Shown here piece by piece: positions 1-40,091 of a stretch of 64,000 nucleotides of DNA. Below the pieces are notes generated by a model, which saw only the letters and a program-made list of their open reading frames with translations, did no database searches and was not told where the DNA came from. The stretch covers positions 78,707 to 142,706 of the forward strand of contig CAVTZP010000005.1 in assembly GCA_963739245.1 (NCBI GenBank), read 5' to 3'. Each line of letters begins with the position of its first letter. Within the stretch, counting starts at the first letter, position 1. The DNA is from an uncultured delta proteobacterium. Its GTDB lineage: Bacteria; Chloroflexota; Dehalococcoidia; Dehalococcoidales; BS750m-G39. Position numbers and translations under genes: made by a program.

Positions 1-226
1 TATGCCCGCCACGACATTGCTTCTGTTCTAGCTGATGGTGGCAGAGCTTACCTCCCAGGCGGAGCCGCTCTAGCAGCTGCGGGTTATCGAAGAACGTAAT
101 GGCTCCGCAACTCAGGCAATGCCCCATATAGCCTCTTTCCAGCTCGAAAATACGGGCTTTTGCCCCGCACGGGCAATCCAGTGAAAACTCCGTTGACCTT
201 TTCTTTGTCGACTTCTTTCTTGCCAT
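1..226 (-). CDS. Small Cys-rich (putative Zn-binding) protein of the inserted element, partial (runs off left edge)
   Basis: Not in the ORF track. Manual translation MARKKSTKKRSTEFSLDCPCGAKARIFELERGYMGHCLSCGAITFF... with CPC/CxxC motifs; GAGGA upstream; follows 235..1266 in the same orientation. Confidence 0.65.
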   Translation of the reverse strand, partial: MARKKSTKKRSTEFSLDCPCGAKARIFELERGYMGHCLSCGAITFFDNPQLLERLRLGGKLCHHQLEQKQCRGGH

Positions 227-234
227 CTCAATCC

Positions 235-1266
235 TCATGGCAACAGCTTAAGTGCGGTGCCAGATGGCTGAGCCACAGTTGCATAAGCATTCTTGTCAGC
301 CTCGACAAGGACAAGGCCACACCAGGGGCACTTATAGATACTACTCGGTACGTTGCCTGGGCGAAGGACCCAGAATAGAGCGCCGCACCACAGACAGTGG
401 TGAAAGGTTAGCTGGTCGCTGGTGCCCAGATACTCGATAAGTGATCGCAGATGCACATAGCGATGGTAAAAGCCTACCAGTTCTCCTTTCTCCGCTATCT
501 CTGTTTTTAGTTGGGATAAGACCATTTCGTGCTGGGCCCGCTCCTCCCTCAAGCGGGACAGGATGCCATCGAGATTGCGCCGGTTTTCGCCGAGGGTCTT
601 GATGTCAGTTTCAAGTGCGGCCAGATAGCCGGTAAGTTTCCCATGTTTCTTCAGTGCCTCAGCTAGCCTTTCGCGAGCATTCGTGTAGCCAGCAAACTCT
701 GCGGCCATACCAAGAGTCAGCTCAAGGCTGAAACCATGTCTTGTCACTTTCGCCTTTACTTGCCCGGCAACGGCGATCTCTGCTTCGGTAACATCAGCCT
801 TCCGGCGATATTCGGCCAGCTCTTCATCAATACGCTTCCTTTCCTTGGCTGCCTTGTTCTTGAAAGCTGCGAGCTCCTTTTCCTCCCTTTCCCAATCCTG
901 CTTCACCTTGCGCAGTTGTTCTGTGGCATACTCGGTTGCCTTTACTGCTTCTCGATATTTCTCTTCCGTTTCCTTAGCTCGGTTTTGTAGTGTTTCGAGT
1001 TCCAAGCGTTGAGCGGCAACCCTTCGCTCCAGTTTCTCATTCTCTTGCAATAGCTGATTGTGCATCTCTAGAGCTTGGCTCAAAGACACACCCTTTTCCC
1101 TTTCCAGCTTTACGAGGCCATTTACAGCTTCGAGATAACCGGAGTCTGCGAGCCGTGTCTGAAGTTCGACCAGACTTTGAAGCTGCTTTTCGCTAAATCC
1201 GGGGTTGAAGGCTCGGGCTGACCTTATAACCTCTTTTAGTTCTTCCGGTGTGAATTCGTGTGTCAT
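235..1266 (-). CDS. Coiled-coil protein with C-terminal Zn-ribbon (CLWC...CPWC)
   Basis: 343 aa, long E/K/R-rich helical region, two C-terminal CxxC pairs; ATGA overlap with upstream gene. Confidence 0.7.
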   Translation of the reverse strand: MTHEFTPEELKEVIRSARAFNPGFSEKQLQSLVELQTRLADSGYLEAVNGLVKLEREKGVSLSQALEMHNQLLQENEKLERRVAAQRLELETLQNRAKETEEKYREAVKATEYATEQLRKVKQDWEREEKELAAFKNKAAKERKRIDEELAEYRRKADVTEAEIAVAGQVKAKVTRHGFSLELTLGMAAEFAGYTNARERLAEALKKHGKLTGYLAALETDIKTLGENRRNLDGILSRLREERAQHEMVLSQLKTEIAEKGELVGFYHRYVHLRSLIEYLGTSDQLTFHHCLWCGALFWVLRPGNVPSSIYKCPWCGLVLVEADKNAYATVAQPSGTALKLLP

Positions 1267-2090
1267 CGTTGTCCTCCGTTAGCCACGTTTTGCAGGATCA
1301 TTCGTATCGCCTCCTCAAGCGTCTGGTTGGCTCTTAGATATGGCATTGCACGGTCAACCATCTCTTTAGCCTCGCTTGCCGGATATGCCATTGCTTTCAG
1401 AGCGTTGAGCAGTTGCTCGTAGGTCCATCGCTGTTCGCCAAGTGGCAGGTCCCCGGCAGTGACCATAAACTGCATACCGAGCAAAGCACCAACTATTAAA
1501 GGGGCTATACTCCTTCCCTGGGAGCCAAAATCGCTAAGCCATGCGGCCACGGATTTACGCCTTAACGTATCTGAGACTCGGCTAACAAGATCATCGGGAA
1601 GTACCACCGGCTTGAATCCGGGTACTTCCCAGGTCGTGCGACCAGCACTTCTTGCTAGCACGACAAATCGACTCAGGTCATCATCGAGAATGGCCTGGAG
1701 GAGGACAAGGGGGATAACCAGCATTTCCGGCTTCCCAATTGGACCAACTAGCGCCGCTGGATAACAACGGTCGCCGGTTTCCACTTCTCCTGCTGCCACC
1801 AGGTACATCTTGAGGTCAATTGTGATGTGTGGAGTACCCCGGGTATCGTAGCCAAGATTAGGAACGGCGATATACCACCGTGTCCCATCCCAGGTTGGAT
1901 TTTCCCGATACCTGCCTCGAATCGCGGTTGTAATATCCTTCTCAGCTTCGGAACGTTGCTTAGTGACGTCTATGGCCGACTTAAATAGGTCAGCGACAGA
2001 AGACCGCATATCATCCGTCCCAGAATCGCGAAAAGCCAAATCAGCAGCTTCTCTGAAGTCTTTTATTTGTCTACCATGTAAGACCTTCAT
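1263..2090 (-). CDS. Hypothetical protein with RuvA C-terminal (domain III)-like tail
   Basis: 275 aa; C-terminal YEQLLNALKAMAYPASEAKEMV...TLEEAIRMIL resembles RuvA_C; GAAGGTGA RBS. Confidence 0.6.
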   Translation of the reverse strand: MKVLHGRQIKDFREAADLAFRDSGTDDMRSSVADLFKSAIDVTKQRSEAEKDITTAIRGRYRENPTWDGTRWYIAVPNLGYDTRGTPHITIDLKMYLVAAGEVETGDRCYPAALVGPIGKPEMLVIPLVLLQAILDDDLSRFVVLARSAGRTTWEVPGFKPVVLPDDLVSRVSDTLRRKSVAAWLSDFGSQGRSIAPLIVGALLGMQFMVTAGDLPLGEQRWTYEQLLNALKAMAYPASEAKEMVDRAMPYLRANQTLEEAIRMILQNVANGGQR

Positions 2091-2199
2091 TCACCTTCAC
2101 GTCCCGCTTTGCCAATGGCACTGGCAACTGCACTCAATTCCTCCAAATGGTTGGTGAGCATGAGTTGTATAAACTCAGAGGTTCTCAGGGCTTCTGTCC

Positions 2200-2964
2200 C
2201 CTAACCTTAGAGAGCCAAAGAGGTTCTGGGGTATATCTGACCTGTCGCAGATTATGGAGTCGCAGCGGGAGCTTAACCGGGCAGTGTCACAGCTATCCCG
2301 GATATTGGAGCTATCGGGTAACCCTATTGCCGTGCTGGAGAATGTGGAAGAGGCTGAGGATATTGCCGTCAAACCGGGGGCGGTGTGGACTATCCCCGAG
2401 GATGCTAAAGCCTATCTCCTTGACCTGCTACAGGGTGGTGGGGTCGGGCTGCACATAGATTATATCAACCTATTATATAGAATCCTGCACGATATATCTG
2501 AATCCCCCCGGGCCGCCTTTGGTGGCACCGAGAGGGACCTATCCGGGGTAGCCCTTGAGATTGAGCTTAACCCGCTGCTGCAGAAGGTGAGGCGAAAGCG
2601 GATTATCCGGACTGCCGTCTATAACCGGAGAAACCGGATGATTCTTAACCTTCTGGAGCAGTACCACGGGGAAAGCTTCGGTGAAAACCGCTTGCGGGTA
2701 ATCTGGAGTCCGGTACTACCCCAGGATTTAAGCCGGCTAATTTCTAATGAGCAGACACTGGTTCAGAGTGGTATTCATTCCCGGCGTGGGGCTATGGAAG
2801 AGGTGGGGATTGAGGACCCGGAGAACGAGTTTAAGCGGTGGTTGGAGGAGAGGGAGACAATTCTCAAAATGAATAAGCAGCTTAACGCTAAGTCAGCTCG
2901 AGGCGGAGAGGGAGGGAGAGCTTTAGCCACCGAGGCTGGAGGCGTTGAGGAATCTCCATCATAA
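2200..2964 (+). pseudogene. Phage portal protein, 3' portion only (interrupted)
   Basis: Frame reads PNLREPKRFWGISDLSQIMESQRELN...DLSGVALEIEL...VIWSPVLPQD, portal-like; too short for a full portal; directly upstream of scaffold and capsid. Confidence 0.75.
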
Positions 2965-2975
2965 GGAGGTGAAGA

Positions 2976-3476
2976 TTGCCGGATAAGAATAATCAACCCC
3001 AAAATCCCGCCGGGGAGGAGCTGGAAAGTGCCGCGACTAGGGTCGTGGAGCTTGAGGAGCTTGTCGCCAGCAAAGAGAGGGAGCTTGCGGTCAAGGACTT
3101 GCGTATCTCTGAGCTTGAGCCAGCAGTAGCTAGTCGGGATGACCAGATTGTTGCCCTCAAGCAGTCCTTAGCTGAGCTGGGGGGGAGGTTGTCTGAGTTG
3201 GAGAGCAGGTTATCGCAGGCGGTATCAAGCTACCGGGCTCTGGTAGTCAAATCAAACCCCGCCGTGCCTGAGGAGCTGATAACCGGGGACAGCATTGAGG
3301 AGATTGACCACTCTCTAGCCAGTGCCCAGGTCCTTGTTGATAGGGTAAGGCAGGGGCTGGGGGCTGAAATCGCCGCGGCAAAAATCCCGGCGGGGGCGCC
3401 ACTACGGACGCCGCTGGACTTCTCGGCGCTGTCCCCCAAAGAAAAGATTCAATATGCAATAGGAGAAAGGAGATAA
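2976..3476 (+). CDS. Putative capsid scaffolding protein
   Basis: Coiled-coil 166 aa between portal and capsid; AGGAGGTG RBS with TTG start. Confidence 0.65.
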   Translation: MPDKNNQPQNPAGEELESAATRVVELEELVASKERELAVKDLRISELEPAVASRDDQIVALKQSLAELGGRLSELESRLSQAVSSYRALVVKSNPAVPEELITGDSIEEIDHSLASAQVLVDRVRQGLGAEIAAAKIPAGAPLRTPLDFSALSPKEKIQYAIGERR

Positions 3477-3480
3477 AAAA

Positions 3481-4401
3481 GTGGCATTAACATTGAATGA
3501 GGCAGCCAAGCTGTCAAACGATATGCTTCTGCAAGGGGTGGTGGAGACCATAGTCAGGGACTCGCCCATCCTTCAGCAACTATCCTTCATTGAGATTGTA
3601 GGCAATGTCCTGACCTATAACCAGGAAAAGACCCTGCCCAGCATAGATTTCTATGATGTCGGTGACACCTGGGCTGAGTCCACCCCCACCTTTGAGCAGA
3701 AAACGGCAAGCCTGAAGATTATGGGTGGTGATGCCGATGTTGATAACTTCCTTAAGGCGACCAGGAGCAATATCCAGGACCTGGAGGCCGCCGTGGTTGA
3801 GCTCAAGGCTAAGGCACTCAAGGATAAGTTTGAGGATACCTTTATCTACGGCGATTCCGCCGCCAGCGCCAAGCAGTTTGATGGCCTGAAGAAGCTCATT
3901 GATACCACCACCGCCAGCCCCCAGGTAATTGCTATGGGGCCAACCGGGGCTACCCTTACCCTGGCGAAGCTGGATGAGCTTATTGATGCCGTAAAGGGCG
4001 GTAAGCCCGCCCTGCTGCTGATGAGCCGGCGCTCAAGACGCAAGCTCAATGCCCTGGTCAGGGCCGCTGGTGGCATGATTGAGACCGATAGAGACAACTG
4101 GGGTAACTTTATCCAGTTGTGGGACGGCATCCCCATCGGCGTCAATGACTGGATACTGGATACCCATGTCCTTACCGATAGTGTGGAGACGGCAACCACC
4201 GGGGGCACCTGCTCCACTATCTATGCCTTCCAGATGGGCGAGGGGGCGCTATGCGGCTTGACCAGCCCCGGTCACATCACTGTTGAGCCAATCGGCTCGC
4301 TGGAGACCAAGGACGCATCACGGACCAGGATTAAGTGGTACTGCTCGCTGGCCCTGTTCAGCTCAATCAAGGCCGCCGCTTTAATCGGGGTTCAAGACTA
4401 A
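3481..4401 (+). CDS. Phage major capsid protein (HK97-fold likely)
   Basis: 306 aa, MALTLNEAAKLS...GGDADVDNFL...FIYGD...FDGL motifs typical of capsid proteins; gene order portal-scaffold-capsid. Confidence 0.85.
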   Translation: MALTLNEAAKLSNDMLLQGVVETIVRDSPILQQLSFIEIVGNVLTYNQEKTLPSIDFYDVGDTWAESTPTFEQKTASLKIMGGDADVDNFLKATRSNIQDLEAAVVELKAKALKDKFEDTFIYGDSAASAKQFDGLKKLIDTTTASPQVIAMGPTGATLTLAKLDELIDAVKGGKPALLLMSRRSRRKLNALVRAAGGMIETDRDNWGNFIQLWDGIPIGVNDWILDTHVLTDSVETATTGGTCSTIYAFQMGEGALCGLTSPGHITVEPIGSLETKDASRTRIKWYCSLALFSSIKAAALIGVQD

Positions 4402-4415
4402 AACTAGCCAATTTT

Positions 4416-4443
4416 GGGGAGCCCTTCGGCTGAAGGGCTCCCC
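4416..4443 (+). terminator. Perfect 12-bp hairpin after capsid gene (terminator or mRNA stabiliser)
   Basis: GGGGAGCCCTTC-GGCT-GAAGGGCTCCCC; no U-tract. Confidence 0.55.
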
Positions 4444-4457
4444 CGGAGGAGAGAAAA

Positions 4458-4983
4458 ATGGAAAATAAGATGGAAAATAAGGATGTAGCTCAGTGGATTT
4501 GTCGCTATCGGCTGGAGAAGAGAGAGGGCGATATCAATGCCTGTCAGTCGCCAGAGGAAAGGCTCGCCTTTTTGGAAAATATCAAGCCTTATGAGGTGAT
4601 TGAGGGCGAGGGTAACTGCCTGCTTAATACTGGCATTGATGAGATGTGGGACCTGATCGCTGGTGACTCGGCTAACCACTTTAATAATGCCAATGCCCAG
4701 ATTGGCGTTGGTGATTCCAATACTGCGGCTAATGCCACCCAGACCGATTTACAGGCAGCGACTAACAAGACCTACAAGGGTATGGAGACCGGCTATCCCA
4801 CCTCTACTTCTCAAAAGGCGACCTTTAAGGCTAGCTTCGGTGCTTCTGATGCTAACTATACCTGGAATGAGTGGGTGGTGAAGCAGGCGACCAGTGGCAA
4901 GTGTCTTAACCGGAAGGTTGACGCCTTGGGGACAAAATCAAGCTGGCACCTGGACTTTAGAGGTTAGCATTACTTTGAGCTAA
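4458..4983 (+). CDS. Virion structural protein, apparent frameshift near 4940
   Basis: NCLLNTGIDEMW..IGVGD..WNEW motifs; removing one base gives C-terminus GTKSAGTWTLEVSITLS* ending at 4983. Confidence 0.6.
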
Positions 4984-5013
4984 TAGTAAGTAGCCAAGAC
5001 ATAAGGAGAGTAA

Positions 5014-5812
5014 ATGGCGACTAAATTAGTCGGTGCTGATGATGTTGCTCAAACTGGTAATGAAGGCGCAAATTACTTTCTCCTCTGTAAGTTTACTGCT
5101 GTAGCCTCAGGGACCATGACCGAGTTTAGAGTAAAGTCAGCGGTTGCTGGTAATGTTAAATGCGCTATCTATGCTGATAACGCCGGAGAACCCGGAGCTT
5201 TAATTACTAGTATGAACACCGGGCAAGCAGTAACCGGTAGTGGCTGGGAGACGTTAACCTTCACCCCAACCTCTATAACCAATGGTGTTGCTTACTGGCT
5301 TGCCGTCTGCTTTGATACAGCAGGAGCAGTTACTTATAAAAATAGTGGTGGCGGCACACCCTATAGAACGAAAACAGCAACCTATTCCTCTTTTACTTTC
5401 CCCGACCCAGCAGGTTCAGGTTTTACTAGCTACAACAATTTCTATGACATAGAAGCAGGCTGGGAAGCAGCCACTGCCAAGACCTCATCGGATACTGGCT
5501 CTGGTGCTGATGCCTATGTCTCGCTGGAAACCGGCGAAGCTAAGACCTCATCCGATGCCGGCTCCGGTGTAGATGGCACACCAGTGCCGAGTGCGAGCTT
5601 GGCTGGCAGTGAAACCGGCTCCAGTATTGACGCCATTATTGCCCGGTTACTGGCTGCCTTTGACACTGGCGGTGGTGTTGAAGCCGCTAGTATTGAAGTT
5701 GGGGAGCTGTTCCAGGAGCTGTTTGCCAGCTGAACTGGGGCAGGGCTCCGATTCCCTTGCCGCCAAGATAGAAATGCCAACCAAGGGGGGAGGTATGAAA
5801 TTATGGACCTAA
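5014..5812 (+). CDS. Putative virion fibre/decoration protein (beta-rich N-domain plus SDxGxGxD repeats), apparent frameshift near 5730
   Basis: ORF 5014..5733 continues in the shifted frame ELGQGSDSLAAKIEMPTKGGGMKLWT* to 5812, overlapping the next start; DUF4082-like AIYADNAGEPG...YWLAV segment. Confidence 0.55.
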
Positions 5813-6396
5813 ACACAATGAGAAGTATTATCCGGCGCGACCTGAAGGATGAGGACCCGTCAAACTACCGCTGGAGCGATGATGAGCTGGATAGGCACAT
5901 CGCCCACGCGGTAAAGGAGTTCTCGGAAGCGGTGCCTCTGCCGGCAAAAGCCACCCTGCCCACCACCCCGGGCTCCAGGGTGATTGATATATCATCCCTC
6001 ACCGATAGGGTTATGGTGGAGGCGGTGGAGTATCCGGTAGATAAGTTCCCGCCCGGCTACCAGAGGTTTGCTCTCTGGGGGCATGCCCTGACCCTTTTTG
6101 GCGATGAAGTCCCCGATGGCTCTAACTGCATTGTCTATTACGGTATGCTCCATACCCTTGATACTCAGGGGTCTACCATCCCCACCAAGCACGAGGACTT
6201 GATTGCTATCGGCGCCGAGGGCTATGCCGCTGTGGAGTGGGCGAGCTATGCCATCAACAGGGTTAGCCTCGGTGGCACCACAACCCCGGGGGAGTTCCTC
6301 AACTGGGGCAATGAGAAACTAAATCAGTTTAGAAGCGAGCTAAAGAGACTGGGGAGAAGAAACCTGGTCAGAATTCGCCAGCTCTACAAGATGTAA
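5803..6396 (+). CDS. Putative head-tail adaptor/connector protein
   Basis: 197 aa, RRDLKD...YRWSDDELDRHI motif typical of adaptor proteins; position in structural cluster. Confidence 0.6.
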   Translation: MDLNTMRSIIRRDLKDEDPSNYRWSDDELDRHIAHAVKEFSEAVPLPAKATLPTTPGSRVIDISSLTDRVMVEAVEYPVDKFPPGYQRFALWGHALTLFGDEVPDGSNCIVYYGMLHTLDTQGSTIPTKHEDLIAIGAEGYAAVEWASYAINRVSLGGTTTPGEFLNWGNEKLNQFRSELKRLGRRNLVRIRQLYKM

Positions 6397-6412
6397 AGGA
6401 GGTTAAAGAAAA

Positions 6413-6562
6413 ATGATAGAACGACTGTACAAGTGGCTTTGGACTAGGATAGGTGGCCGACCCTGGACTTATATTATCCGGGATAACCAGAGGCAATATC
6501 CTCTGTTCTGGCTTCTTCTGTTTGGTGCCCTCGGCATTTTGCTCGGTCACCTGTTCTGGTGA
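6413..6562 (+). CDS. Small membrane protein (49 aa), possible holin-like
   Basis: Not in ORF track. MIERLYKWLWTRIGGRPWTYIIRDNQRQYPLFWLLLFGALGILLGHLFW*; AAGGAGGT RBS. Confidence 0.65.
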   Translation: MIERLYKWLWTRIGGRPWTYIIRDNQRQYPLFWLLLFGALGILLGHLFW

Positions 6563-6578
6563 AGTCTAAAGGAGCTAA

Positions 6579-8581
6579 ATGAGGCAGCTTAGTTCAACAT
6601 TGCTTGCCGCTCAGCAGCAGGCGACCGGTGCCCCCTATGTCAGGGTGGAGGCATCAAATAGGCACGCCGGGGTGGTCAACCTGCGGTGGGCAAGGCTTTA
6701 TACCGGCGCGGAGGATGATTACTTTCACGCTGTGGCCATGCCCGGGGATGGCTCCCTAATCAGGGTCAGGATAACACCCCCGGCTGACTCCAGGAAGCTG
6801 TATCGCCAGAGGGTGGCCAGCCCCAACCCCCAGTCCGATTTCAGCCAGTGGGCCTACACCAACCAGTATGACGTTGTTACTGTGGCTGGCTGCTGTCTCG
6901 GGGCTGAGGTCTCTATCTTCTGGATTAAGAGCGACCGGAAGGTCTACCAGCTAAAGAGCACCGACTACGGGGTTAGCTGGGGAAGCCCCCAGCTCCTTGG
7001 CTATACCCCCACCACCGCCATCAATGGCATTGCTGCCTCGTATAAGCCGAACGGCGATATTGCCCTGTTCTTTGCTGACCAGGCAACCCTCTATGTAATG
7101 AAGCGAATAGGTGGTAGCTGGGGGGATAAGGTCGCCTGGAACAAGTCAACCGGCGACCTGTCAGGTGTTGCTGCCGTTTATGGTGGCGATTGGAACCTTT
7201 TTATTACCGGGAAGGATTCTAACGGTAATTTCAAACTTTGGTCGCTGGTTTATGGTGACGGTGGGGATGTCGCTGCTGGCACCTGGTCGGAGCTGAAGGA
7301 GTTTGCCTCAGCCCCGTCAGATGGCAGCTTTGAGTACCGGGCGGCGTTTATGGATAAGCCCGATGTCTATCGCTGCTTCTTTGTTGAGAAGTTTAGCGGA
7401 ACCACGTCGTACAGCCGCCCCTTCTGGTCGCACTCAGTGTTGGATGCTAAGTTTATTGACAACCCGTGGCATGAGCCAGTACCGTTCAACCTTTCCTGCC
7501 AGTATGGCATGGCTATCGCCCACCACGGCGAGTATTGCTGGCTATCTACCCCCTATGGCGTGTGGCGGGCTAAGCTGACCCCCGAGAGCCTGGACTTGTC
7601 TGCCGACGTCCTGTCATTAAGGCAGGAGCTCACCTCAAACAGAGGTAGTCTTACTGTTGAACTCAGAAACGATGATGGCCGGTATGCGGCACCAGGACAG
7701 GGTGACCTTTCCGTCCTTGACATCGGCGGTCAGCTTGAGCTTAGCCCGGGCTATGTTACCTCTCAGGGGAGTGAGACGAGCTCAGGACTTATCTTTACCC
7801 TCAACGCCTATGAGCATACCAGCTCCGGTGGTAAGGCGAGCCTGATTCTCCATGCCTCAGACGGCTGGAGCCTGATTGAAAGCTGGAGAGCCAGGCACCA
7901 GTTCCGCTGGAATAAGCAGAGTAATGAGCTGAGCGTTAAACAGCTCCTTCAGTTTGTGCTGGCCAGGGTCGGGCTGGGCTTGAGACAAAATCCCAGTCGG
8001 CGGTGTTAACCGGCTACTACCCCGATTTCACCATCAACCCCAATAATAGCGGTGACAGCGTTATCAGCCGCCTGCTGTCCTTCGTCCCTGATACTTTATT
8101 TATTGAGGGCAACAAGGCCTACGTGGTAAACCCGCAAGCATCGGATAGCTCCGTCTATAGCTATGGTTCCTCTCATTATATTCTGGATGGCAGGTATAGA
8201 GAGGCGGCTCAGGAGCTTAACCGAGTCCAGGTTGAGGGTTATGACCCGACGCAGAGCAAGGCGATTGTGGTTGACTGTTTCGCCTGGGACCAAATAGAGC
8301 GGCTCTATGACCGGCTGAGGCAACTTGAGGATAAGAATATAGATACTGTAACTAAGGCGGAGCAGAGGGGGGAGGCTTATCTAAGACGGGCGGAGGTGGC
8401 ATCGGTTAATGGTTCCATCCTCATCCCGGTTAATTGCGGCCAGCAGCTATATGATGTTATTGACATCACCGATAGCCGGGCCGGTCTTGATGCCGCCAAG
8501 CGGCGGGTGCTCGGGCTGGCCCTGGTTTATAGTCCCAAAAGCGGGGAGTACCAGCAAAGGTTATTGCTCGGCGGGGTATAG
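6579..8581 (+). CDS. Large tail/baseplate-hub-like protein, split by apparent frameshift near 7976
   Basis: ORFs 6579..8009 and 8003..8581 join as ...ARVGLxLETKSQSAVLTGYYPDF with one added base; Asp-box-like STDYGVSW; hub-like C-terminus. Confidence 0.6.
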
Positions 8582-8594
8582 AAATTGTTTATCT

Positions 8595-8729
8595 ACCTCA
8601 CCCCCTTAATCCCCCTCTCCTTTAAAGGAGAGGGGGAGGAATAAAAAAGAGGGGGGGGCGAAGCCCCCCTCTTAAAACTACTTCCCCCTTCCCCTCTAGG
8701 GGAAGGGGGTCAGGGGGATGGGGTTACCA
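8595..8729 (-). repeat. GC-rich multi-hairpin intergenic repeat (REP/MITE-like), copy 1
   Basis: ACCTCACCCCC end, hairpins CCCCCTCTCC..GGAGAGGGGG, AAGAGGGG..CCCCTCTT and CCCCCTTCCCC..GGGGAAGGGGG. Confidence 0.85.
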
Positions 8730-8814
8730 CCTAAAGCAGGTTCCCTGAAAATCAAAGATTCTTAAGGGTGCATAAAAGCGATAGGGTTATAAGAATATTT
8801 AAGGGGAGACTGAA

Positions 8815-9027
8815 ATGAGGCTGAGGAAAGCAGTGCTGAAGGGTTTCAACTCCGGGGACTATACCGCCACCGTCCAGGTTGCTGGCAGCTATAAGGTCTA
8901 TCTGGAGGGTATTTCTGTGGCGCGGAATCTGCCCGCCGCCGAGATGGCGCTGGGCAGAAAGGTAGCGGTTATATTCTTTGACGAGAATAACGCCAAAGAC
9001 GCCGTTGTTATCGCCGTTTATACTTAA
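8815..9027 (+). CDS. Small phage-cluster protein (possible OB-fold spike-like)
   Basis: 70 aa, beta-rich, last gene of structural cluster; AAGGGGAG RBS. Confidence 0.55.
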   Translation: MRLRKAVLKGFNSGDYTATVQVAGSYKVYLEGISVARNLPAAEMALGRKVAVIFFDENNAKDAVVIAVYT

Positions 9028-9088: not shown

Positions 9089-9490
9089 CTATTGTGGTGC
9101 TTGTTCTTTGCTCACGCCCTGGGCAATATTCTTTAAGATAGTAAGGATGGCAATGAGGGCACGCTGCACATCAACCGGCTCCCGGGCAAGCACACCAGCC
9201 ACATAGGGGTCTACCATGCCCCCGGAATACTCCGACCCGGCCTCAGCCACGCCGGAAGAATGGGAAGATAGATACCCGGCTAAGGTAAACAGCCCATCCT
9301 CACCAATGCCCAGAGGCTTGGCGATTCTCCGCAGAACGCGGGCCGAAGGATAGCGCTCCCCCCTCTCTATCCGCCCGAGATGGGACGGGGATACCCCTGA
9401 CATGGTAGCCAGCTCCTGGAGTGTCAGTGGTATGGTAACCCTCTGCCGCCTAATGATTTCGCCTAAATTGTTACTTCTTCCGTCAAACAT
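9089..9490 (-). CDS. Xre-family HTH transcriptional regulator (paralog of 26170..26562)
   Basis: LTLQELATMSGVSPSHLGRIERGER HTH. Confidence 0.9.
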   Translation of the reverse strand: MFDGRSNNLGEIIRRQRVTIPLTLQELATMSGVSPSHLGRIERGERYPSARVLRRIAKPLGIGEDGLFTLAGYLSSHSSGVAEAGSEYSGGMVDPYVAGVLAREPVDVQRALIAILTILKNIAQGVSKEQAPQ

Positions 9491-9568
9491 AAAAACCTCG
9501 TTATTTTAATTTACTGGATGTAAAATATCAAATAAAAAAGTATAAGCTAGTTAATTTAAACACAGGCT

Positions 9569-9582
9569 TCGCCAAATGGCAA
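9569..9582. promoter_or_regulatory. Putative Xre operator palindrome
   Basis: TCGCCAAATGGCAA; its reverse complement matches 26140..26153 at 12 of 14 positions. Confidence 0.6.
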
Positions 9583-25268: not shown

Positions 25269-25757
25269 ATGGCAGTTCTTCCTATTCATACTGTTCCTGA
25301 CCCGATACTGAAACAGAAGTCAAAGCGGGTTAAGACTATTGACGGCTCAATCAAGAAGCTAGTAGGGGATATGATTGAGACACTGCACGCTGTCCCGGGG
25401 CGAGTAGGCTTAGCCGCGCCCCAGGTGGGTGTTTCCTTGCAGGTGATTGTTATTGGCATACCCGAGGAGGAGGATATAGCCCTGATTAACCCGGAAATCG
25501 TGCGCCGGAAAGGGGAACGCATGGTAACCGAGGGTTGCCTCAGCATCCCGGGCTACTTCGGGGTGGTCAAGCGTGCCGAGTCGGTCAGAGCCAAAGGGCG
25601 TGATGTGAGGGGGAAGGGGATAAAAATTAAAGCCGATGAACTTCTGGCTCAAGTACTGGAGCATGAGATAGACCACCTAAATGGGGTGCTGTTTATAGAA
25701 CACCTGGAAAGCCCAGACCAGCTATACAAGGTAGAACCTGAGGTAGCCCAGCTTTAG
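25269..25757 (+). CDS. def: Peptide deformylase
   Basis: GLAAPQVG, EGCLS, HEIDHLNG. Confidence 0.97.
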   Translation: MAVLPIHTVPDPILKQKSKRVKTIDGSIKKLVGDMIETLHAVPGRVGLAAPQVGVSLQVIVIGIPEEEDIALINPEIVRRKGERMVTEGCLSIPGYFGVVKRAESVRAKGRDVRGKGIKIKADELLAQVLEHEIDHLNGVLFIEHLESPDQLYKVEPEVAQL

Positions 25758-26050
25758 GTGCTTTCTGCCGGTTTTCTTTCCAAGCTAACTGGTTGGCTCT
25801 TTTGTCTCTCCATTGGCTGGACCGGGGCTGTGTTGCCAATCAGCGCCTCGGGGACAAGATAGAAAAGGTCATCAAACTTATATTCGGGGAAGGCTTTTAT
25901 TGCCCCGATGATGAATTTTCGGTTGATGTGGCGTTTGCCTTCAAGCACCCGGTAAATCTGGCTTACCGATATTTCCATCGCCATGGCGAGCTCAGATAGG
26001 TTCCGATATTGTGCGGCGTACAAATCGAAGACCCTTGTTTTCAGTATCAT
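25754..26050 (-). CDS. Small HTH regulator (Cro-like)
   Basis: NLSELAMAMEISVSQIYRVLEG HTH; divergent from Xre gene. Confidence 0.8.
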   Translation of the reverse strand: MILKTRVFDLYAAQYRNLSELAMAMEISVSQIYRVLEGKRHINRKFIIGAIKAFPEYKFDDLFYLVPEALIGNTAPVQPMERQKSQPVSLERKPAEST

Positions 26051-26062
26051 GGTTCGCCTTTT

Positions 26063-26161
26063 CTGCCAGTTGGCAATATTGTAACCGAGAATTTGCCTAT
26101 TGTCAAGACCTTTCTATTCTTTTTGTGCTTTGTTGACATTTGCCAGATGGCGAATTATAAT
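26063..26161. promoter_or_regulatory. Divergent promoters with three palindromic operators
   Basis: Rightward TTGACA(26133)-N17-TATAAT(26156); leftward TTGACA(26106)-N17-TACAAT; operators CTGCCAGTTGGCAA 26063, TTGCCTATTGTCAA 26093, TTGCCAGATGGCGA 26140. Confidence 0.75.
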
Positions 26162-26169
26162 TTAACTAT

Positions 26170-26562
26170 ATGCGGGATATAGACAACAATCTGGGTGAGA
26201 TACTCAAGCAGCGAAGGCTTTCGCTATCACTTACGCTGGGCAAGATTAGTGCCATGTGCGGTGTCTCGGTGTCGCACCTGGGCCGTATTGAGAGAGGCGA
26301 GCGTTTTCCCTCAGGCTCAATTCTGCGCAGAATCGCCAAGCCGTTAGGTTTTGAGGAGGACGAGCTGTTTACTCTCGCTGGCTACCTATCTCCCCCCACC
26401 CCGGGTGTGGCTGAGGGTCAACAGCACTACGGGGGTGGGGAATTAGACCCCTATGTGGCTAAGATGCTGACACAGGAGCCTGTTGATATACAGCGTGCTG
26501 TCCTTGGAATCCTCAGTATCCTAAAGAGCATTGCCAAGGGCGTAACCAAGGCAGGCAAATAA
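26170..26562 (+). CDS. Xre-family HTH regulator (CI-like; paralog of 9089..9490)
   Basis: GVSVSHLGRIERGERFPS; collinear similarity with 9089..9490 over the whole length. Confidence 0.9.
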   Translation: MRDIDNNLGEILKQRRLSLSLTLGKISAMCGVSVSHLGRIERGERFPSGSILRRIAKPLGFEEDELFTLAGYLSPPTPGVAEGQQHYGGGELDPYVAKMLTQEPVDIQRAVLGILSILKSIAKGVTKAGK

Positions 26563-26671
26563 ATATCTAGCCTATGTTTTTAGCCTGCCCGGGAAAGCGC
26601 TTGGTAGTCTTTCACTGAATTCCCCCTTGATATATGGCTAGACTGGTAGTATATTGTAGCTTTAGAGTATT

Positions 26672-28186
26672 ATGTGGGGAAGAATGAAGCTATCTATTGA
26701 CCCTAGAGTCTCATCATTACTAGCTGCAGTAAACAACCTTCTCACCGAGCAGGGGGTAAAATCATATCTTGTCGGTGGGTTTGTGCGTGATGTTCTGCTG
26801 AAAAGAGATACGGCTGATATTGATATTGCTGTTGCCACAGACGCCGTAGAGATTGCCCAACAAATAGCCAATGCTCTTGGTGGTAAGTTTGTCCTGCTGG
26901 ATAAGGTGAACCGGGTGGGCCGGGTGATTATAGCTGATAAAGAAGCATCGCCCGCTCGGTGGGAGCTTGATTTCTCCACATTTCAGGGTAGCATTGAGCA
27001 CGACCTGGCACAGCGCGATTTCACCATAGACGCCATCGCCGTTGACCTTAGTGAGCTAACCAAAGGTTCCGGCGATGTCCCTCTCATAGACCCGTTTAAC
27101 GGTTGGGCTGACCTAAAGCGTGGCGTGATTCGGGCTGTTTCTGAAACAGCCTTCCAGTCGGATGCCGCCCGCTTACTGCGGGCGGTGCGCCTGGCTAGTG
27201 AGCTTGGTTTTTCTCTTGACAATCAGACCGAGACTTGGGTTCGGGACGATTGCCATCTTATCGCCGGTGTGGCTGGTGAGCGAGTGAGAGAGGAGTTACT
27301 CCGGCTCCTCGCTGTCCCTCAATCCCAGCGATTTCTCCCCTACCTTGATGACCTGGGGTTAGTCACCGCTATCATCCCTGAGCTGGCGGAGGCAAAGGGG
27401 GTGAAGCAGCCCAAGGAGCACTTCTGGGAGGTCTTTGACCATTCAATAGAGACAGTAGCTGCCGTTGATTTTGTCCTCCGCGAGGGAGCGTGGGAATATG
27501 CCAGTGATGAAACCCTGGCTTTTGTTCCCTGGTCAGAGTCGCTGGCTCAGCACTTTGCTCAGGAGGTCAGTCATGGTAGCACCAGGAGGGTGCTGCTCAA
27601 GCTAGCGGCACTGCTTCATGATGTGGCTAAGCCTCAGACTAAAGCCATTGCTGAAGATGGTCGGATGCGCTTTCTTGGGCATGGCAAGCTGGGGGCAGCG
27701 GTGGCGGCTAGTATTCTGGAAAGGTTGAGGTTTAGCAGCAAAGAGGTTAAACTGGTGGAGGTTATGGTCAGGGAGCACCTCAGACCGGGGCAGATGAGCC
27801 AGGGAGGACTTCCCAGCCGACGGGCTATTTACCGTTACTTTCGTGACACTGCTGATGCCGGCATTGATATACTATTTTTAGGCCTGGCCGACCACCTGGC
27901 CACCAGGGGACCACAATTAAACCTAGCTGGATGGCAGGAGCATGCCCGGATGGTGGATTATGTGTTAACCCAGCATTTTGAGCAGGAGAAGGTGACTACC
28001 CCGCCCAAGCTAGTTGACGGGTATGATATAATAAATAGTTTTTGCTTGAACCCGGGGCCAAAGATTGGTAAACTGCTTGAGGCGGTGCGGGAGGCGCAAG
28101 CCTCAGGGGAGATAGCGAGCAGGGAGGAGGCTCTGTCTTTTATACGGGAGAGACTAACAACCAAGGCAGTGAATAGATATGGCTAA
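26672..28186 (+). CDS. cca: CCA tRNA nucleotidyltransferase / poly(A) polymerase family with HD domain
   Basis: LVGGFVRD, DIDI, DLAQRDFTIDA, LLHDVAKP. Confidence 0.85.
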   Translation: MWGRMKLSIDPRVSSLLAAVNNLLTEQGVKSYLVGGFVRDVLLKRDTADIDIAVATDAVEIAQQIANALGGKFVLLDKVNRVGRVIIADKEASPARWELDFSTFQGSIEHDLAQRDFTIDAIAVDLSELTKGSGDVPLIDPFNGWADLKRGVIRAVSETAFQSDAARLLRAVRLASELGFSLDNQTETWVRDDCHLIAGVAGERVREELLRLLAVPQSQRFLPYLDDLGLVTAIIPELAEAKGVKQPKEHFWEVFDHSIETVAAVDFVLREGAWEYASDETLAFVPWSESLAQHFAQEVSHGSTRRVLLKLAALLHDVAKPQTKAIAEDGRMRFLGHGKLGAAVAASILERLRFSSKEVKLVEVMVREHLRPGQMSQGGLPSRRAIYRYFRDTADAGIDILFLGLADHLATRGPQLNLAGWQEHARMVDYVLTQHFEQEKVTTPPKLVDGYDIINSFCLNPGPKIGKLLEAVREAQASGEIASREEALSFIRERLTTKAVNRYG

Positions 28187-38885: not shown

Positions 38886-38933
38886 TTAGCGTTATAGCAA
38901 TCAATCTAGTTAGCGTTATAGCAATCAATCTAG
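38886..38933. repeat. Exact 24-bp tandem duplication
   Basis: TTAGCGTTATAGCAATCAATCTAG x2. Confidence 0.9.
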
Positions 38934-40091
38934 CGTTTGGCCGCTTTTATGGGTAGTTCTATTTTTGTCCCATCCCGTAGCAGGGTAAGGGTGACCTCGT
39001 CACCCGGACTGGTATGCTCCCCCAGATAGCAGGTAAGGTCGGCTATATTCCGAACCGGTGTCCCGTTAATCGCAACTATAATGTCATCAACCTTAATACC
39101 GGCAGCCTCAGCCGGGGTAGCCGATATGACCGTCTTAACCAGCGCGCCATTAACTGTTTCCAGATTTCTGGTTTTAGCCGTTTCCGGGGTAAGGTCAGTT
39201 ATCTCCACGCCGAGCCACGGGTAGTCAAAAGAGCCCCGCTCAATGAGGGAGAGGGCAACCCTTTTCACCTTGTTTGAGGAAACAGCGTAGTAGACCCCGT
39301 CTCCGAGCTTGGGGTCAATCCGAGCGACAACCATCCCGATGACCTCTCCTTTAGAGTTAAGAAGAGGGCTGCCGGAGTTGCCGGAATTGATTGCGGCATC
39401 AAACTGGATTATGTTGGCCACCCCCCCCAGGCATAACGTCGTATTTTACTTGTCGGTTTGTTTGGCTAACAATGCCTGAGGTGATAGTCCCCGGCAGGTC
39501 AAAGGGGTCACCGATAACTATAACCGGCTCGCCAACCTCTACCGTGGCGGAGTCCACCAGTGTTAACGCCGGGATAGGCAAACTTTGTTTCAATACCGCA
39601 ATGTCGCTATATTCGCAGACGCCAACGATACTGGCTAGCGAGGTATGACCATCGAGTGTGATTATATATATCTGGTTTTGCCCTTTCACTACATGCTGCG
39701 GGGTAAGGATGTAACCCCCGGTATCAAAGGCAAACCCCGAACCGAGCACCTTCTCTCCATCGCTAATCCTGACTACGCCCTGGCTAACCTCCTGATATAG
39801 CTTGCCGGCATTTATGACCGATTGTTCCATTTCATCAATCTTAATGGCAACACCTTTCAGCTCGTTGTGCAGGGCGCTAATCTTCCCGCTGAGGTGGAAA
39901 GCGTAGGCGCCGAGGGCACCAGCTAAGACCAAGGCGAGGACTAAAACTCCAATAACCGCCTTGTTAGCCACTTTGCTAACTACTTTCTTAAGCCCCTTCT
40001 TAACTGCCTTCTTATTCACCTTGTTAGCCACTTTGCTAACTACTTTCTTAAGCCCCTTCTTAACTGCCTTCTTATTCACCTTATTGACCAT
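38930..40091 (-). CDS. htrA: HtrA/DegP-like serine protease with PDZ, out of frame at a G8 tract (39421..39428)
   Basis: GSGF, HVV, DIAVL in 39399..40091; IQFDAAINSGNSGSPL and PDZ in 38930..39421. Confidence 0.85.
39961..40080. repeat. Exact 60-bp tandem duplication in htrA 5' end
   Basis: Lines 39961 and 40021 are identical; encodes VNKKAVKKGLKKVVSKVANK x2. Confidence 0.95.

Follow-up and report, generated by a model that had tools for sequence, protein, structure and literature searches.

What do two small regulators, laid out like the cI/Cro region of a phage, do among the housekeeping genes of a bacterial chromosome? The question is raised by a 64,000-nt stretch of DNA from an uncultured member of the Dehalococcoidales (hereafter the window). 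In it, two divergent XRE-type helix-turn-helix (HTH) genes, called as open reading frames (ORFs), lie between def (25269-25757) and cca (26672-28186), both recognized with Pfam. We term them L, the small minus-strand gene on the def side (25754-26050), and R, the plus-strand gene on the cca side (26170-26562). To our knowledge, almost nothing is known of transcription control in the Dehalococcoidales outside the organohalide-respiring isolates, and we found no description of an L/R module in the Dehalococcoides and Dehalococcoidia literature on leaderless transcription starts, on XRE regulators and the surface (S-) layer, on gene transfer agents or on LexA. We consider it very probable that L, R and their operators form a real, conserved regulatory module with a regulon in trans. 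The explanation that we favor, and to which we give about an even chance, is that of a host-owned, vertically inherited circuit of two XRE repressors, built like a phage cI/Cro region and having envelope genes as its outputs. That the two proteins repress each other and make the circuit bistable is a more tentative part of this explanation.

The region between L and R holds two promoters placed back to back. The rightward one, PR (26133-26161, plus strand), consists of TTGACA (26133-38), a 17-bp spacer and TATAAT (26156-61) and matches the consensus at 12 of 12 positions, while the leftward one, PL (26078-26106, minus strand), consists of TTGACA (26106-01), 17 bp and TACAAT (26083-78) and matches it at 11 of 12. 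They are the top two of 7 promoter-like sites in 4.5 kb, where shuffled sequences give 3.0 +/- 1.4. Three copies of a palindrome, TTGCCA-N2-TGGCAA, overlap these promoters. O1 (26062-26077, core 26064-75, palindrome TGCCAGTTGGCA) begins 2 nt downstream of the PL -10 box and covers the predicted leftward start site. O2 (26092-26107, core 26094-26105) is an imperfect palindrome (TGCCTATTGTCA) that lies over the PL -35 box, its right half being that box read on the opposite strand. O3 (26139-26155, core TGCCAGATGGCG at 26141-52) contains TTGCCAGATGGCGAA at 26140-54 and fits the 17-bp PR spacer exactly. A dimer bound at any of these positions would block RNA polymerase. A search of Rfam over 25600-26750 gave no match at E <= 1.

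The two genes also differ in the way their transcripts would begin. The PR -10 box ends 8 nt before the ATG of R, and there is no Shine-Dalgarno sequence; because the ATG stands so close to the -10 box, the R mRNA is predicted to have no leader or almost none. The leader of L is about 21-27 nt long and contains a weak Shine-Dalgarno sequence. When the genome was searched strictly, for consensus -35 and -10 boxes with a start codon 5-10 nt further on, 19 genes were found, R and a surface-protein gene described below among them. Thus, starts of the leaderless type appear to be a small minority in this genome, yet not unique to R.

The first part of the answer comes from the relatives. Of 41 related genomes, 34 carry R and 30 carry L, and among same-family genomes both L and R are found in 22 of 24. 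L and R are adjacent and divergent at all of the 19 relative loci that were fetched, and they are flanked by def and cca at 17 of these, the other two being cut by contig ends. Identities across these loci are 58-81% for L and 67-82% for R, to be compared with 64-82% for def and 58-81% for cca. The neighborhood is syntenic over about 35 kb in five genomes belonging to three families, in the order particle locus (a phage-like head locus, see below), oxidoreductase gene dependent on flavin adenine dinucleotide (FAD), yqeY, nrdJR, ftsZA, mraWZ, trmD, rplS, priA, def, L/R and cca. In 20 of 20 intergenic regions, which range from 119 to 200 bp, conservation is confined to O1-O3 and the two promoters, with hardly any variation in TTGACATTTGCCAnnTGGCGAAyTATAAT. 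To cover the whole order, we used an even sample of 151 Dehalococcoidales genomes, all at least 90% complete. L was found in 81 of them, in one or a few copies each, and R-family genes in 108; R is also present in 80 of the 81 genomes with L. We found no cultured member of the lineages bearing the module among the contigs retrieved.

These comparisons point to a def-L-R-cca module that is vertically inherited and owned by the host. The earlier note on this DNA had called the pair an orphan, a word that does not survive them. It had also named a sporadic remnant with degenerate sites in relatives as the outcome that would speak against a functional switch; the opposite was found, since the sites are nearly invariant, and the conservation between def and cca that it proposed to check is there. 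The same evidence bears on the idea that L and R are the decaying remnant of a prophage, a toxin-antitoxin pair or a restriction-modification controller, with no function for the host. XRE pairs are indeed common in such elements, and the HTH domain of R resembles controller proteins and HipB-type antitoxins. Against this, L and R have def and cca as neighbors and no gene for a toxin, a restriction-modification system, an integrase or another phage function beside them, and both genes and all the sites are intact and conserved at a housekeeping rate over the order, which contradicts the idea. We regard it as exceedingly improbable.

The promoter architecture recurs well beyond the def-cca interval. 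Among 96 R-family genes with enough upstream sequence, 77 have a promoter of the form TTGACN-16..18-TANNNT. Its spacer contains YGCCANNTGGCD in 65 of these 77 cases, and the distance from the -10 box to the start codon is 10 nt or less in 65 of the 77, with modes at 6, 7 and 9 nt. With such frequencies, the leaderless-type start and the operator-in-spacer cassette are best read as traits of the R family. A subgroup of the family, at loci L124, L136, L137, L140, L146, L150, L151, L229, L235, L238 and L240, some of whose members adjoin cca with no L present, keeps the consensus promoter and a leaderless spacing of 6 nt. Its spacer, TTCGTCGGCTTGCTAAC or a like sequence, has no palindrome, and GCTAAC is conserved ahead of the -10 box. 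On the L side, 41 of 49 distinct upstream regions have a PL-type promoter. An O1 equivalent (at most 1 mismatch, 2-3 nt past the -10 box) accompanies 27 of these 41 promoters, and O2, in the form TTGACA-NN-TGGCR with at most 1 mismatch, accompanies 35. The distance from the end of the -10 box to the start is always 27-55 nt in the L orthologs.

The proteins themselves are small enough to be described in some detail. R (130 aa) is an XRE protein of the repressor type, which matches Pfam HTH_3 (PF01381) with E 5.4e-11 and 42.8 bits, above the curated cut-off of 23. L (98 aa) is a single-domain XRE-type protein that stays under this cut-off (E 0.006, 17 bits) and matches PHROG 3642, "HTH DNA binding protein", with E 4.7e-14. 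In NCBIfam, R has sub-threshold matches only (RstR, ClgR, DicA and others) and L has none; in a sequence search of the PDB, R gives generic XRE matches (best E 2.8e-5) and L nothing meaningful. The model of R (predicted local distance difference test, pLDDT, 82) places the HTH domain at residues 1-70, a disordered linker at 78-89 and two conserved C-terminal helices at 94-128. Its HTH domain is closest in Foldseek to controller proteins and ClgR, and full-length alignments are obtained with SinR and DdrO. No S24 peptidase domain was found in R, for which Pfam gives HTH families alone and whose C-terminus is made of the two helices. The model of L (pLDDT 80) has a strand at 2-5, five helices, a strand at 63-66 and a disordered tail, and its best Foldseek match is CylR2 (1utx; template modeling score, TM, 0.78 over the target). 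Conservation in L covers a core of about residues 1-66, with 24 invariant alignment columns, among which are those of SVSQ.YRV..G.R, and the tail is variable and disordered. The last 25 or so residues of L may be a lineage-specific read-on, as they are unconserved, predicted to be disordered and missing from orthologs that stop earlier; the L ORF overlaps the def stop by 4 nt (25754-25757). The recognition helix of R, SHLGRIERGER, is invariant over 51 R-family proteins, and that of L, SVSQ[IV]YRV, is invariant as well and follows a similar pattern (S-x-S-Q/H-I/L-x-R).

What the earlier note had described in the letters of the window therefore stands: the divergent HTH genes, the back-to-back near-consensus promoters with three palindromes, the leaderless-type start of R, the lack of an S24 domain and the likeness to lambda OR in layout, with its divergent HTH genes, back-to-back promoters and three related operators.

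If the module regulates more than itself, the palindrome has to be found elsewhere. In the window, the 12-mer TGCCANNTGGCA has 7 matches with at most 1 mismatch, against 2.79 +/- 1.53 in shuffled sequences, 2 of 100 shuffles reaching 7, so that the enrichment of the 12-mer is by itself mild. Three palindrome matches, at position 10566 of contig C1 and at window positions 258 and 1436, fall within the coding sequence of inserted elements and were put down to chance. The 15-mer TTGCCANNTGGCRAA is found at only 3 places in the 1.35-Mb genome and its reversed control at none. Given its conservation in relatives, the palindrome is far beyond chance. In the relatives, the 15-mer marks one to four more sites per genome beyond the R promoter; among the matches listed for the 41 related genomes, 73 are to the 15-mer, palindromic sites being counted on both strands, and 6 to the reversed control.

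The recurrent and most conserved of these targets is the ortholog of a gene for a 969-aa protein (contig C3, 122812-125721, minus strand) that bears a signal peptide, BNR/Sortilin repeats and, at its C-terminus, a membrane anchor. This surface protein of about 1000 aa is present in 128 of the 151 genomes, and we take it as a putative S-layer protein. In this genome, the promoter of its gene is TTGACT-17-TAGAAT-tttgccacATG, and a perfect palindrome, TTTTGCCACATGGCAAAA, spans the start codon. An exact palindrome lies at the start of this gene or at most about 35 nt upstream in at least 17 genomes, as counted by matching coordinates by hand. Twenty further genomes with L were fetched, of which 15 gave N-terminal matches, and 13 of these 15 have the palindrome (at most 2 mismatches) at the surface-protein gene, mostly as TTCGCCAnnTGGCGAA with the ATG inside. 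Twenty genomes lacking L gave 12 N-terminal matches, and only 1 of the 12 has the palindrome by the same measure. At loci L201, L203 and others, from genomes without L, the surface-protein gene has a strong promoter, TTGACT-17-TAGAAT/TACAAT, only 6-11 nt before the ATG and no operator. From these promoters, the leaderless-type start seems to be ancestral for this gene. The other targets seen in relatives are also of the envelope type: genes for a GT4 glycosyltransferase, for secreted proteins (Laminin_G_3, CARDB, camelysin-like and beta-helix), for a phosphohexomutase and a DivIVA-like protein, and for a membrane protein of about 110 aa, this last gene having the complete TTGACA-operator-TATAAT cassette.

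Over the order, the 15-mer is found in 81 of the 151 genomes, while the reversed control gives scattered single matches only. The 15-mer occurs in 72 of the 81 genomes with L and in 9 of the 70 without it, a contrast that, like the one at the surface-protein gene, is inflated by kinship yet holds across many families. The nine genomes of the second group have single matches, about the level of the reversed control. When the genomes lacking L are divided according to R, the 15-mer is present in 2 of the 28 that have R and in 7 of the 42 that have neither gene.

Which of the two proteins, then, would bind the palindrome? We lean towards the view that an R-family protein does so. Among 20 genomes with R and no L, 5 keep TGCCAnnTGGC[A/T] in the spacer of the R promoter and 3 more have related palindromes there; in four others, R promoters of the f33 type are without a palindrome, and in three closed f10 genomes, R has a leader with a Shine-Dalgarno sequence and the cassette is absent. 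With recognition helices as alike as those of L and R, the simplest reading would be a single operator family shared by the two proteins, as it is by cI and Cro.

The palindromes kept in these L-less genomes also favor a one-way cascade with no bistability, in which R-family proteins would be the sole binders and L one repressed target among others, with sites or a function of its own. A tightly autoregulated R, when inactivated by some signal, would then free L, the surface-protein gene and the rest. The extra conserved C-terminal domain of R could take such a signal, in an architecture like that of SinR and DdrO, and two operators, as L has, are what a strongly repressed target would show. 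A regulon of R alone, however, leaves unexplained why the sites at the S-layer gene and the exact 15-mer are almost confined to genomes that have L. No partner or protease for R was found adjoining R, and the only Peptidase_M78 gene of the genome encodes a fused HTH-M78 protein in a context that looks mobile. We judge this cascade unlikely, though still worth serious consideration. The Peptidase_M78 (ImmA/IrrE-type) gene lies on contig C4 at 95722-96738 (locus L169, 1279-2298, minus strand) and encodes 339 aa with an N-terminal HTH_3 domain; its neighbors are unannotated genes resembling a mobile or defense island. An ImmA/IrrE-type protease was considered as the inducer of R, and this gene, unlinked to R, was the one that came up.

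The tracking of L by the exact sites would also suit another arrangement, in which L is the master: a CylR2-like dimer of L would read TTGCCA-N2-TGGCRAA, regulate itself at O1 and O2 and repress R, the R paralog R2 (see below) and the surface-protein gene, with the R family binding elsewhere. The distribution of the 15-mer just given (72/81, 2/28 and 7/42) speaks for it, as do the S-layer-gene site (13/15, plus at least 17 exact cases, with L and 1/12 without it) and the invariant recognition helix of L. On the other side, some lineages without L keep the palindrome core in the spacer of the R promoter, and, as the genomes with and without L form different clades, the coupling may be one of shared ancestry. 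In sum, L as master seems to us rather improbable.

We can now put the favored two-repressor circuit together. R would be made from its consensus-strength promoter as a leaderless mRNA, and a dimer of R would bind the 6-2-6 palindrome TTGCCA-N2-TGGCRAA. At O3, within the 17-bp spacer of its own promoter, this would lead to autorepression, and at O1 and O2, which bracket the PL -10 box, it would shut off L. L, as a small CylR2-like dimer with a similar recognition helix, would bind operators of this same family and repress R in turn, and a toggle would result. The outputs would be the other genes bearing the palindrome, that is, the gene for the surface protein of about 1000 aa and R2 in this genome, and more envelope genes in relatives. 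The origin would be the immunity module of a domesticated phage, whose structural genes are on a separate promoter with a LexA-type box. This would make of a phage-type cI/Cro layout a host circuit with a reusable operator-in-spacer cassette, evolutionarily tied to the domesticated phage locus.

Several observations weigh against this construction. The exact 15-mer and the S-layer-gene site track L and not R, which fits L as the binder at least as well as R. When recognition helices were compared with operator types for covariation, the R helix proved to be the same whatever the spacer, and thus unchanged in the lineages whose R promoters (of the f33 type) have no palindrome. The pair is not always a pair, either: in 7 genomes of family f27, L adjoins def and its divergent neighbor is a permease gene, in 3 genomes of family f30, L directly faces cca, and in both groups, the sole R-family gene is the one at the particle locus, so that a toggle must also act in trans. 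The distance between O2 and O3 varies with the intergenic length, which makes a lambda-like cooperativity across both promoters unlikely. A repressor site on the very start of what is presumed to be a top-expressed envelope gene is awkward for a simple on/off toggle. In a quick tree of the R family, the deep forks are too weakly resolved to derive the def-side genes from those on the particle side. Of 22 sequencing runs listed, 20 of which contain at least part of the window, none is recorded as RNA. Lastly, we infer every regulatory arrow of the circuit.

The particle locus, to which the origin of the module would be tied, lies in the same window. It is a phage-like head locus (2191-9027, plus strand) that comprises the C-terminal part of a portal gene, a scaffold-like gene, the major capsid gene (3481-4401), an adaptor gene (5803-6396) and others. 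The locus also covers 33867-34773 of contig C5, and its synteny extends over the order. In the part that was looked at, neither a terminase gene nor a tail or integrase gene was seen. The capsid protein is 78-95% identical across the related genomes compared, and hence more conserved than def and cca, and its gene is present in 116 of the 151 genomes. R2 (9089-9490, minus strand), a paralog of R with 63% identity and the same recognition helix SHLGRIERGER, stands tail-to-tail with the last gene of this locus. An R-type operator, TTGCCATTTGGCGAA read on the minus strand (9568-9582), lies upstream of it, between R2 and the FAD-dependent oxidoreductase gene. This operator is one of the three 15-mer sites of the genome, and the relatives have an operator cassette at the same position. 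The candidate R2 promoter is at 9503-9531 (minus strand; TTGATA-17-TAAAAT, 10 of 12), so that here the operator is upstream of the promoter and outside its spacer. The arrangement recurs in many families: of 12 operator sites fetched near particle loci, 10 have an R-family gene with the cassette beside the end of the locus, usually opposite the FAD-oxidoreductase gene. A count by hand from coordinates gives at least 41 genomes in which the capsid gene and an R-family gene share a contig at a distance of 3.7-16 kb. The L/R switch itself is 17-28 kb from the particle locus wherever both share a contig. The R family thus appears to be tied to the particle locus, at whose end its genes recur and where f27 and f30 have their only copy; this fits an origin in phage immunity.

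The earlier note had proposed an orphan, lambda-like immunity switch, bistable and directly turning on the particle genes in a subpopulation. The lambda-like layout, the conserved presence of an R paralog with the same operator next to the last particle gene and the constant proximity of switch and particle locus all speak in its favor. The promoter of the particle operon tells otherwise. It lies outside the window, at 33813 of contig C5, where it precedes a Cys-rich HTH gene and the portal gene, and all 7 genomes compared have kept it. The palindrome in its spacer is a different one, AGAACA-N2-TGTGCT, which is LexA-box-like (AGAACATATGTGCT; AGAACAnnTGTGCT), and a conserved GACAAAA element stands upstream of its -35 box. 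A second promoter with the same LexA-like box is found 5 kb upstream (contig C5, 28979), and the leader of lexA carries a similar box, AGAACAAATGTATT (contig C3, about 260850; locus L245, 1700-1713). A Cheo-type box, GAAC-N4-GTTC, has reportedly been described as the LexA site of Dehalococcoides. The presence of LexA-like boxes in the particle promoter and in the lexA leader suggests SOS (LexA) control of the particle genes. No R-type operator (12-mer core, at most 1 mismatch) was found inside the particle locus, either in six relatives or in the window, and, of the 116 genomes with a capsid gene, 48 have no L and 27 have no R-family gene at all. The portal gene is interrupted here by a 46-kb insert, and the module, as seen above, is not an orphan. 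Because the box at the particle promoter is different and because 48 capsid-bearing genomes are without L, direct control of the particle genes by L and R is not supported by these comparisons, and the circuit probably does not drive the structural genes. What is left of the claim is a partial link, R2 beside the last particle gene, and we hold the proposal as a whole to be quite improbable.

The particle locus presents some further features. The portal gene is split into a part encoding residues 1-213, at 34135-34773 of contig C5, and a part encoding residues 209-473, at window positions 2191-2961. The insert of about 46 kb between them (contig C5 34773-80897 and window 1-2190) carries glycan and protein-glycosylation genes, including an epimerase, methyltransferases, a Polysacc_synt flippase, pieces of an AglB/STT3 oligosaccharyltransferase and a B12 radical-SAM enzyme. 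The 5-residue overlap of the two portal halves hints at a duplicated target. Two GC-rich hairpin repeats with purine/pyrimidine-rich arms lie between the last two particle genes (8590-8710). Elsewhere in the window, at 38930-40091 on the minus strand, a trypsin-like/PDZ (HtrA-type) protease is encoded as two overlapping ORFs, one of 230 aa with the N-terminal part of Trypsin_2 and one of 163 aa with the end of Trypsin_2 and the PDZ domain, which may represent a frameshift or a split gene.

Putting the switch, the envelope genes and the particle locus together leads to a bolder proposal, which we regard as a long shot. The wall-less Dehalococcoidales would have kept the immunity switch of a phage domesticated long ago and rewired it to S-layer and envelope genes, so that one bistable L/R decision would set the cell surface of a subpopulation, this surface being the likely receptor of the particle or the barrier to its exit, and R2 would tie the decision to the LexA-controlled particle genes. 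The locus offers a fully defined cis-element, a 15-bp operator fitting a 17-bp promoter spacer exactly, together with two candidate binding proteins small enough for direct biochemistry and a predicted regulon centered on the gene of a surface protein of about 1000 aa, so that operator, binders and regulon can be tested in Escherichia coli or in vitro, with no need to culture the organism. It would also be a clean case of a phage-type cI/Cro layout that has become an inherited host circuit near a domesticated particle locus, and bears on the control of tamed phage elements. A true toggle would predict heterogeneity of the surface layer in abundant bacteria of sediments and aquifers.

How does this module compare with the systems that are already known? 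In restriction-modification systems, the controller (C) proteins act as small XRE dimers and regulate themselves through palindromes on their own promoter; C.AhdI, C.BclI and C.Esp1396I have the solved HTH domains nearest to that of R. Unlike them, R has an extra C-terminal domain and a predicted trans regulon, and no restriction or methylase gene is adjacent. Type II toxin-antitoxin systems of the HipB/HigA type differ in that L and R are divergent and both HTH proteins, and no toxin family was found. SinR of Bacillus subtilis and DdrO of Deinococcus are master repressors encoded on the chromosome, whose repression is lifted by a partner (SinI) or by a protease (IrrE). They share with R an HTH_3 domain followed by a short helical C-terminal domain, in about 130 aa, but the full-length Foldseek alignments (SinR 1b0n; DdrO 6rnx and 6jq1) have high root-mean-square deviations of 9-12 A, so that the architecture alone is shared. 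No SinI-like or IrrE-like partner is linked to R, the lone M78 gene being elsewhere and fused to its own HTH domain. For L, the best structural match is CylR2 of Enterococcus faecalis (1utx, 2xiu), a small repressor that acts as a dimer on an inverted repeat within a promoter. The modeled core of L, five helices closed by N- and C-terminal strands, resembles the 66-residue chain of CylR2 with a TM score of 0.78 over the target, E values of only 8e-3 to 2e-2 and an identity of 17-18%; over the Foldseek matches as a whole, TM is 0.75-0.78 and E only 8e-3 to 4.5e-2. L also carries its variable disordered tail.

As a circuit, the module resembles the lambdoid immunity regions (lambda, 434 and P22, with cI or c2 and Cro at OR). 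Both have divergent HTH repressors, back-to-back promoters, three related operators and similar recognition helices in the two proteins, and the longer repressor would be read from an mRNA of the leaderless type, much as lambda cI is from its PRM transcript. There are differences too. The L/R pair has no S24, RecA-cleavable domain and sits outside any prophage, among housekeeping genes; two of its operators are at PL and one is in the PR spacer, with variable spacing; no lytic gene follows, cca being next, with its own promoter; and L and R are not adjacent in two large families. The operator is found at unlinked host envelope genes as well, and inheritance is vertical over the order. Another comparison is with the regulators of gene transfer agents such as RcGTA, in which production of the particles and surface functions of the recipients are co-regulated. 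CtrA and GtaR belong to other protein families, and the particle promoter here has a LexA-like box, the R/L operator not being found there. What the two systems have in common is that regulators of the host are tied to the locus of a domesticated phage particle.

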